Source: Promethearchaeota archaeon
GTDB taxonomy: Archaea > Asgardarchaeota > Lokiarchaeia > Sigyniarchaeales > SOKP01
Reading direction: 5' to 3'
DNA: 42,094 nucleotides
Assembly: GCA_048938895.1 (NCBI GenBank)
Contig: JBHLLU010000034.1
Location: forward strand, 1-42,094
Shown here: piece by piece, positions 9,458 to 42,094 of the stretch
Layout of the letters: each line of letters opens with the position of its first letter
Position numbering within the stretch: position 1 is the stretch's first letter
Translations under genes and position numbers: made by a program
The notes under the pieces: model-generated
What the model saw: the letters and a program-made list of their open reading frames with translations, nothing else
The model's database searches: none
What the model was told of the DNA's origin: nothing

Positions 9458-9561
9458 AGCGGGGTGGGCTAGCCTGGTTTATGCCGCAGGGCTCATAAAT
9501 GGTATTTCCACTCCATAGAGAAACCCTGAGATCGTTCGTTCAAATCGAACCCCCGCTACCA
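9458..9561 (+). tRNA. Initiator tRNA-Met(CAT) with 25-nt canonical 37/38 intron (9498-9522); CCA encoded
   Basis: AGCGGGG/CCCCGCT acceptor with A1-U72, three consecutive G-C pairs in the anticodon stem, TTCAAAT T-loop, relaxed BHB. Confidence 0.93.
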
Positions 9562-32747: not shown

Positions 32748-32841
32748 ATAATTGATTAAATTAAATTTCTTTGAAGATATATAAAAAATTTACAAAAGTA
32801 TCAACCCAAAACATTTTTTCATGCTGTTAATAAGGTATTAA

Positions 32842-33162
32842 CTATTTACTTTGAATAAGGATATTTTCTTCAGGGAATCCTAAATCAATTAATAATTTTT
32901 TCATTTTAAATCGGTGGTCTCCTTGGAGTTCAACCCCGTTATCTCTAACAGTTCCTCCAGAGGCGCATTTTTTTTTGGCTTTTGTCAGAATATTTTTCAG
33001 ATTTACATCAAAATTTCCAACAAAAGTAATTACAGTAACGATTCTGCCCCATTTCCGCGTATCATTAGAGATGACAATTTGTTGTTCATCAGCACTTAAG
33101 CTATCGCAAATACAAAGTTCTTTTGGGAAGCTACATAATGGACAAATGTCGTCGTCTTTAAT
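32842..33162 (-). CDS. sui1: Translation initiation factor aIF1 (SUI1/eIF1 homologue), 106 aa, apparent ATT start; absent from the ORF track
   Basis: Manual translation (I/M)KDDDICPLCSFPKELCICDSLSADEQQIVISNDTRKWGRIVTVITFVGNFDVNLKNILTKAKKKCASGGTVRDNGVELQGDHRFKMKKLLIDLGFPEENILIQSK: C..C..P.ELC.C knuckle, R..G..VT, KCA.GGTV, ELQGDHR. Confidence 0.92.
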   Translation of the reverse strand: MKDDDICPLCSFPKELCICDSLSADEQQIVISNDTRKWGRIVTVITFVGNFDVNLKNILTKAKKKCASGGTVRDNGVELQGDHRFKMKKLLIDLGFPEENILIQSK

Positions 33163-33411
33163 ACTCTCTTTTCACAACCTTTCTTATTTAAAACTATTTA
33201 AAATTCAGTACTAAAAAATAATAGAATAAAATCTTATAAAAATCTTTTTTATTTTACTTTATGGTTATTAAAAAGGATTATCAAATAAATTAAAAAAAAG
33301 TCCATCTTACAGGGACTTAAAATTGCTTTCGAAAAAATATATAAAGCTAAATTTTTATTATTTATCAATAAGCTTATTCTTTATTCTGTAATATTTATGT
33401 GATAAACAATA

Positions 33412-33939
33412 ATGCAGAGTTCTTGGATATTTAAAGTTATTGTGGCGGGAGCTGGAGGGGTTGGAAAAACGGCAATGATAACACGTTATTGCACCGGTAA
33501 GTTTGAAGAAGGTTATAAAATGACCATAGGCGCGGGTTTTCACACTAAATCAGAAGTTCTTGATACCCAAGAAATAGTCAAAATGCAATTATGGGATTTT
33601 GCCGGCGAAAAACGTTTCCGTGAACTATTGCCTGATTATTGTAAAGGTGCAAGTGGTGCTTTTATTTGTTTTGATATAAGTGATTATGATACTTTTAGAG
33701 AAATTCCAGAATGGCTTAAGATCATCCGTCAGAAAGCAGGATTTATACCAATAATTCTGATGGGAATGAAATGGGATTTAGAAGATCATGAAGTTGAGTT
33801 TGATGTAGCTAATGATTATGCTAAAAGAGCAAAATGTAACCAATGTGTATTCTGTTCCTCAAAAGAAGATATAAATATAAATGAATCTTTTCAAGCGATG
33901 GCAAAATGGTTAATTTATTACGCAACTCAAGGAGAATAA
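33412..33939 (+). CDS. Rab-like small GTPase (Ras superfamily)
   Basis: G1 GAGGVGKT, G2 TIG, G3 LWDFAGE, RF..L...Y..GA, degenerate G4 MKWD, G5 CSSK. Confidence 0.9.
   Translation: MQSSWIFKVIVAGAGGVGKTAMITRYCTGKFEEGYKMTIGAGFHTKSEVLDTQEIVKMQLWDFAGEKRFRELLPDYCKGASGAFICFDISDYDTFREIPEWLKIIRQKAGFIPIILMGMKWDLEDHEVEFDVANDYAKRAKCNQCVFCSSKEDININESFQAMAKWLIYYATQGE

Positions 33940-41930: not shown

Positions 41931-42094
<164 letters not shown>

Follow-up and report, generated by a model that had tools for sequence, protein, structure and literature searches.

An ATT initiation codon for the translation initiation factor aIF1 in an Asgard archaeon and in related genomes

An aIF1 gene of an Asgard archaeon, encoded in the window analysed here (the whole stretch of DNA under study, 42,094 nt), is intact and, to judge from its reading frame, must be initiated at an ATT codon, a conclusion that we regard as secure. 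The conservation of this start across a whole family of genomes suggests that the factor may limit its own synthesis, and such a regulatory reading of the ATT codon is plausible. Feedback through a poor start site is known for IF3 in bacteria and for eIF1 in eukaryotes, and no description of it in archaea was found. Near-cognate aIF1 starts (AUU, AUC, AUA or CUG) occur in the archaeal phylum closest to eukaryotes and are absent from 73 other archaeal loci sampled, and this wider Asgard pattern is the more interesting result. If the feedback reading is true, it would add a third, independently testable case and possibly an evolutionary bridge to the eIF1 circuit.

The aIF1 reading frame and its initiation codon

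The aIF1 (SUI1) coding sequence occupies positions 32842..33162 on the minus strand of the window and comprises 106 codons and a TAG stop (32844-32842), as delimited by its translation and by matches to Pfam, NCBIfam and PDB. At its 5' end the minus strand reads AGG TTG TGA AAA GAG AGT ATT AAA GAC GAC GAC ATT TGT CCA TTA TGT, where the TGA at 33172..33174 closes the frame upstream, the ATT at 33160..33162 is the initiation codon inferred by comparison of homologous codons in close family loci, and the N-terminal zinc knuckle, CPLC...CIC, follows at codons 7-19 (33106..33144). The original prediction, that an intact aIF1 frame closed by TGA contains no ATG, GTG or TTG ahead of the knuckle, was confirmed; in the window sequence no such codon occurs in frame before codon 86. 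ATT is thus the only possible start, a suboptimal own start of the infC or eIF1 type. The frame is absent from a mechanical ORF list of the window with a minimum of 30 aa.

The product is a member of the SUI1 family (PF01253, 5.9e-17, 62.3 bits against a cut-off of 25.5). It also scores 111.4 bits with NCBIfam NF002096 (cut-off 98), its residues 4-103 falling on profile positions 2-101 of 102, and in the PDB it matches the aIF1 of 4mo0 (E 2.1e-25), with residues 5-103 aligned to 3-101; because the profile and the PDB alignments both place an N-terminus here, initiation at ATT would give a protein with a normal N-terminus. Its length of 106 aa and its CxxC...CxC motif at residues 7-19 are of the archaeal type, and the knuckle cysteines C5, C8, C15 and C17 (alignment numbering) are invariant across 20 diverse Asgard aIF1 sequences. 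The aIF1 proteins known from structures, namely those of S. solfataricus, P. abyssi and M. jannaschii (4mo0, 5jb3, 5jbh), share the family, the length and the zinc knuckle, and the available text of the corresponding papers reports no near-cognate start for any of the three genes. For S. solfataricus aIF1, an annotated -1 frameshift was removed by resequencing, as related in an excerpt of PMC8211752. The gene is present in a single copy in a 4.65-Mb assembly that is 98.7% complete. Adjoining it, in divergent orientation, is an ORF on the plus strand (33412-33939, 175 aa) with a small-GTPase-like motif (GAGGVGKT ... WDFAGEKRF).

Proteins 88-91% identical to the product carry NCBI names such as Promethearchaeota, in agreement with the predicted Asgard host. 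In these metagenome-assembled genomes (MAGs) the same gene is labelled 'stress response translation initiation inhibitor YciH', a name borrowed from a bacterial SUI1 homologue, with inconsistent starts (MKDDD versus MCPLC) and no regulatory meaning attached. Some NCBI products begin at the ATT (MKDDDIC; P0002-P0006, P0012, P0016, P0017, P0029), and others begin at codon 6. The aIF1 products of JGI, ENA and Logan are truncated to 84, 90, 76 or 70 aa. The expectation that gene callers would miss or truncate the gene therefore holds for JGI, ENA and Logan and fails for NCBI, where annotation already begins at ATT or at codon 6. Prodigal-type calling truncates a universal marker, aIF1, in a large family of Asgard MAGs. 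For the further near-cognate genes of these genomes, among them those for a GPN-loop GTPase, an aldehyde:ferredoxin oxidoreductase and a zf-AN1 protein, a gene caller that does not accept ATT, ATA, ATC and CTG will give wrong N-termini, and hence wrong folds and domain assignments.

The original prediction had itself named a way in which the ATT reading could fail, namely one A too many in GTGAAAAGAG, and the reading survives it. The only hint of an error of this kind is that the window has four A in a row. The relatives carry GTGATAAGAG, which has the same length as GTGAAAAGAG, so that the window has a T-to-A substitution and no insertion. Window positions 32800-33300 were also compared with Logan contigs from four public DNA runs: a contig of 3413 nt (run X1) covers 32800-33240 with one differing letter and no gaps, and a contig from a separate study (run X3) covers 33007-33192, likewise with no gaps, although only X3 counts as independent because X1 may be the source sample. 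A homopolymer error is ruled out by the equal length of the relatives, with T in place of A, and by these gap-free contigs from two studies. A pseudogene is contradicted by the intact frame, by the conserved residues and by the fact that this is the sole aIF1 of a nearly complete genome; error and pseudogenization together can for practical purposes be dismissed.

The sole difference between the contigs and the window near the aIF1 start lies at 33171, where the window has A on the minus strand (TGA AAA) and the co-occurring strains (contigs of runs X1, X2 and X3), along with most relatives, have T (TGA TAA); on the plus strand this is a T>A change to the majority form. This strain-level polymorphism sits directly after the in-frame TGA, and the TAA form amounts to a double stop. 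Decoding of the TGA as selenocysteine after the in-frame TTG was also considered and was ruled out, as the next codon is TAA in 40 of 86 relatives.

Conservation of the start codon in the family and the phylum

A search for the aIF1 protein gave matches in 128 of 151 genomes from the window's GTDB order, and the 5' ends of all full-length matches were examined, at 135 loci. Left out of the counts were partial or fragment matches (G101:C284, G130:C133, G026:C182, G042:C91, two in G069:C390, G006:C1:1032005, G095:C70 and G071:C9) and a duplicate listing of the full-length G022:C57; three loci could not be read, owing to N-masking, truncation at a contig end or a missing knuckle. Of the 108 readable main copies in the window's GTDB family, 101 are free of ATG, GTG and TTG between the nearest in-frame stop and the first cysteine of the knuckle, a count that may reflect a single ancestral event because related genomes are not independent. 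In the remaining seven copies, of which four are in g13 and the others in g15, g18 and g21 (one in each), a GTG is present within the SD-like motif.

The 86 closest loci, defined by an identity of at least 74% and by 70 nt of upstream sequence, carry ATT (83) or ATC (3) at the homologous position and never ATG. The original prediction had held that a near-cognate codon conserved here among relatives would support it, and this tabulation strongly favours ATT. Codon 2 is AAA or AAG throughout, and codons 3-5 alternate among GAC, GAT, GAA and GAG, apart from two AAC at codon 3. Upstream, codons -1 to -3 vary freely, and stops are found at codon -4 (TGA in 86/86), at codon -3 (TAA in 40/86) and at codon -2 (TAG in 4/86). 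The coding-type variation from codon 2 onward, together with the stops at -2, -3 and -4, indicates that coding constraint begins exactly at the ATT.

Codon 6, a second isoleucine codon (ATT at 33147-33145 in the window), is near-cognate as well, being ATT in 77, ATA in 5 and ATC in 4 of the 86 loci, and initiation there would give a protein beginning MCPLC. Four NCBI protein clusters are annotated in this way, with MCPLC, MCAIC or MCPIC as their first residues (P0007, P0008, P0009 and P0011). Initiation at codon 6 is nevertheless very unlikely in our estimation: the SD-like box would stand 24 nt upstream, outside the 4-10 nt range of this genome, the N-terminus would be three residues shorter than that of M. 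jannaschii aIF1, and codons 2-5 vary in a manner that preserves Lys and Asp/Glu, and so appear to be translated. The use of codon 6 as a selection control for codon 1 was abandoned, as the difference (9 versus 3 variants of 86) is too small for use.

Outside the family, but within the order, the 13 loci of the sister family have ATA (2, with TGA upstream), GTG (2), TTG (6) or ATG (3), so that 2/13 lack a canonical start, and both loci of a third family have ATG. A second aIF1-like gene, 61-65% identical, was seen in nine genomes (G129, G149, G137, G107, G044, G126, G052, G007 and G144; loci L099, L100, L102, L103, L108, L117, L118, L119 and L126). Most of these genes have an in-frame GAGGTGA followed 7-8 nt later by ATT or ATA; they could be paralogues or bin contamination, the bins being 4-9% contaminated.

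Across the phylum, PF01253 was sought in 301 genomes, of which 282 matched, and 70 loci from 27 other Asgard families were taken from among the matches listed (30 as returned and 40 chosen, with the sequence unseen, for family coverage), a further 142 matches lying outside that listing. Thirteen of these 70 loci, from 7 of the 27 families, have no canonical start before the knuckle and offer ATA, ATT or CTG in its place. In f20 (3/3 loci) and f14 (1/1) the codon is ATA after AGGAGG, in f7 (2/2) it is ATA, in f19 (2/4) ATA or ATT, and in f9 (1/1) CTG; f5 contributes its single locus (1/1), and in f12 three of nine loci have CTG where other members have GTG. In these other families a classical AGGAGG or GAGGTGA stands 7-10 nt ahead of the near-cognate codon.

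A scan of named genome records yielded 80 aIF1 loci, 73 of them from non-Asgard archaea, mostly Thermoplasmatota and Methanomassiliicoccales, with Thermoprotei, Methanomethylicia, Woesearchaeota, Nanoarchaeota, Methanoperedens and others also represented. The non-Asgard genes start with ATG in 71/73 cases and with TTG in the other two (Methanomethylicota). Only four of the 80 scanned loci lack a canonical start, and all four are Asgard (ATC, ATT, ATT and, in a Thorarchaeota record, CTG). One locus in the scan (L272) has almost the same layout as Methanomassiliicoccales loci although its record, probably a mislabelled or mixed bin, is titled 'Lachnospiraceae bacterium'.

Two control genes were followed in the same manner. 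The gene for aIF1A (PF01176) starts with ATG in 28 and TTG in 2 of 30 family loci, and in 15 non-family genomes with a non-canonical aIF1 it has ATG or TTG in 15/15, one of these being ambiguous, with an ATA behind an SD. The gene for the GPN-loop GTPase has a canonical start at 30/30 loci outside the family. The excess of non-canonical aIF1 starts outside the family (13/70, versus 0/30 for the GPN-loop GTPase and 0/15 for aIF1A) thus still points to something specific to aIF1, with the reservation that related genomes are not independent observations.

The leader sequence and other routes into the frame

The start is preceded by an SD-like box, AAAGGTTGTGA, at 33172..33182 on the minus strand (-20 to -10), 9 nt upstream of the ATT, each position of which is conserved in 91-100% of the 86 close loci. 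The window also contains the 3' part of the 16S rRNA gene (41932..42094, minus strand; Rfam RF01959, 144.6 bits), which ends in the anti-SD sequence GGATCACCTCCT. Both the box, with AGGTTGTGA ending 9 nt before the ATT, and the 16S tail were as first written in the original prediction, and the two pair with each other. The duplex between the aIF1 leader and this tail is worth -7.9 kcal/mol, a value equalled or bettered by 13% of 1042 unambiguous starts. The spacing of 9 nt between GTGA and the start codon is shared by 19 of 177 GTGA occurrences, the mode being 6-7.

In a genome with a GC content of 0.311, the frequency of G upstream of the 1042 unambiguous starts climbs from 0.09 to values of 0.19-0.28 between -14 and -8, and SD 5-mers are 11- to 26-fold enriched upstream of starts; between -20 and -4 the enrichment is 13- to 26-fold for GGTGA, GAGGT, AGGTG and AGGAG, with GGTGA at 26-fold. 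On account of this enrichment of G and of SD 5-mers, the genome can be said to use Shine-Dalgarno sites. The SD-like element of aIF1 is interrupted by two mismatching T that never vary, and the invariance of this TT inside GGTTGTGA is not explained by SD pairing alone. The start region as a whole hardly varies among relatives, and a search for stable RNA structure around the start found none (a 91-nt fold of -8.5 kcal/mol, z +0.51, with 140/200 shuffles folding as well).

Further upstream, a TATA-like stretch, TTTTAAATA, lies at 33185..33193 on the minus strand (-31 to -23 from the ATT) and is partly conserved, at 0.67-0.97 per position. This is the classical distance of a TATA box from a start, and the base at -1 is a pyrimidine, as might be expected if the mRNA were leaderless and began at the AUU itself. 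A different route would lead into the frame from an out-of-frame GTG (33175-33173), either by reinitiation at UAUUAA or by a +1 frameshift; GTG ATA AGA GAG TAT TAA is open in most members of the genus, and its TAA overlaps the ATT. However, the GTG frame runs on past the start codon in the three species with ATC, the GTG itself is missing from genus g22, where AAGGAAGGAA stands in its place, and the short frame of g12 is a different one. A tRNA-Tyr shifting from UAU to AUU would, moreover, presumably re-pair poorly. Reinitiation or frameshifting from the GTG was rejected for this lack of conservation in the ATC species, g12 and g22. Against the GTG and the leaderless routes alike stands the observation that ordinary SDs precede the other near-cognate starts, both here and in other families, and we know of no efficient leaderless initiation on a non-AUG 5' end. 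We accordingly give very little credence to either route, and the preferred reading remains initiation at the ATT under the direction of the SD-like box.

Near-cognate initiation in the genome and a candidate feedback loop

The aIF1 gene is not the only one of its kind in the genome. It has 3435 stop-to-stop ORFs with 150 codons or more, and in 229 of them the first canonical start lies at least 25 codons past the upstream stop. Within the first six codons of ORFs without an early canonical start, an SD 5-mer precedes ATT, ATA or ATC in 32/224 cases (14.3%) and CTG in 4/15, versus 58/1085 (5.3%) for other codons; the comparable value for first ATG starts is 334/2844 (11.7%). In 31 long ORFs an SD and an ATT, ATA, ATC or CTG come right after the stop, with no canonical start for at least 21 codons.

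A Pfam scan of the 20 candidates with the longest canonical-free N-termini gave no hit for six and nothing informative for eight; in the other six, a domain starts well ahead of the first canonical start codon. The products of these last six are a GPN-loop GTPase (ATP_bind_1, residues 6-250), a CoA-binding/ligase protein (CoA_binding_2, 27-161), an aldehyde:ferredoxin oxidoreductase (AFOR_N, 7-205), a zf-AN1 protein (zf-AN1, 4-40), an ABC ATPase (ABC_tran, 21-168) and an alpha/beta hydrolase (Abhydrolase_1, 24-164), and their domains begin 19-57 codons upstream of the first ATG, GTG or TTG. For each of these genes the apparent start is an ATA, ATT, ATC or CTG with an ordinary SD in front of it. 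Their loci in the window's genome (G000) are C140:50940-51716 (L291), C140:13058-14542 (L292), C19:41316-43157 (L300), C77:17193-18176 (L301), C144:26454-27212 (L302) and C19:38-763 (L304).

Two of these genes have kept near-cognate starts in about 30 species of the genus. That of the GPN-loop GTPase is ATT in 24, ATA in 4 and ATC in 1 of 29 loci, five of which also have an in-frame TTG a few codons upstream, and that of the zf-AN1 gene is CTG in 20, TTG in 4, GTG in 2, GTA in 2, ATA in 1 and ACG in 1 of 30; ATG is found in neither. A 2026 paper on Asgard tubulin independently mentions, in the portion available, a 'rare ATT start codon' and, at a plausible distance from it, an RBS (PMC13394414). 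Because the family keeps other genes with near-cognate starts, a conserved ATT does not by itself imply autoregulation of aIF1.

The ATT could therefore be a true start with no feedback specific to aIF1, the gene being one member of a class in which a strong SD allows AUU, AUA, AUC or CUG; such starts might keep expression at a fixed level, or they might simply be allowed to persist under A+T mutation pressure. The low GC content, the frequency of SD 5-mers before ATT, ATA and ATC, the six Pfam-supported candidates of 20, the two starts conserved in the genus and the tubulin gene are all in keeping with this explanation, which is a real possibility, if not a probable one. It leaves unexplained, however, the excess of non-canonical aIF1 starts in other families relative to the GPN-loop GTPase and the matched aIF1A genes, and also the absence of both ATG and ATA at codon 1 in all 86 loci, ATA being equally favoured by A+T pressure.

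The alternative scenario, that aIF1 started at AUU represses its own synthesis in a negative-feedback loop, is one for which we judge the chances to be about even. According to this model, aIF1 mRNA would be translated from the AUU at 33162-33160, which the ordinary initiator tRNA (CAU) would decode as Met, with the 30S subunit placed at the AUU through pairing of the AAAGGUUGUGA box with the 16S tail. It is established for the family that aIF1 destabilises initiation complexes on non-AUG codons, and the window's aIF1 would do so on near-cognate ones. More free aIF1 would then mean less initiation on its own AUU, and less aIF1 would mean more, in a loop resembling that of IF3 on infC and of eIF1 on its own poor-context AUG. 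In S. solfataricus, the 30S complex with aIF1 binds an AUG mRNA and not an AUU model mRNA, as described in the available sections of PMC4705826 and PMC8211752. Since members of the aIF1 family reject non-AUG complexes, we infer that the window's own aIF1 discriminates against AUU, and that the loop operates by self-repression of AUU-dependent aIF1 synthesis.

The feedback exerted by IF3 through the AUU of infC has been demonstrated in bacteria, whereas for Asgard aIF1 it is a prediction. In both cases a fidelity factor is translated from an AUU behind an SD, and the AUU is conserved among relatives. The two factors are unrelated in fold, as stated in the accessible part of PMC4705826, and in the window's organism the use of AUU extends beyond one or two genes. 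With eIF1, whose autoregulation through a poor-context AUG is taken as established in the part of PMC6237735 available, aIF1 shares both the SUI1 family and the logic by which more factor leads to stricter start selection and hence to less of its own synthesis. Eukaryotes, however, weaken the context of a scanned AUG, whereas in the window it is the start codon that is near-cognate, and an SD positions the ribosome.

The original prediction was not aware of such a start having been described in Asgard archaea, and a literature search agrees with this: no paper on a non-AUG start or on autoregulation of archaeal aIF1 was found among the full texts searched. Among reviews of archaeal initiation, the available text of PMC6237735 presents the eIF1 loop for eukaryotes only, and that of PMC7531240 and PMC6412873 contains no matching terms.

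A more speculative extension, which we hold to be rather unlikely, is that aIF1 acts as a homeostat of start-codon stringency in Asgard archaea, its self-limiting level setting the output of all SD-led genes that start at AUU, AUA, AUC or CUG. Such a circuit would be a prokaryotic forerunner of the eukaryotic eIF1/eIF5 circuit that, among the archaea sampled, is confined to Asgard lineages. By a rough scaling of ORF counts, the SD-led near-cognate class amounts to perhaps 1-5% of the genes of the family.

The window also encodes an intron-containing tRNA-Met (CAU), found with ARAGORN at 9458-9561 on the plus strand, which begins AGCGGGG and has GGG before the anticodon loop, features that we take to be of the initiator type. 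With an initiator-type tRNA-Met at hand, no unusual initiator is needed for AUU, although the tRNA census is incomplete and leaves room for a second, unusual initiator tRNA: ARAGORN found 17 tRNAs in the whole genome without and 24 with intron search, and numbers this low indicate that many tRNA genes probably carry introns that the program cannot model. ARAGORN also reports a tRNA-Sec (TCA) in this genome and, with intron search, a tRNA-Pyl (CTA).
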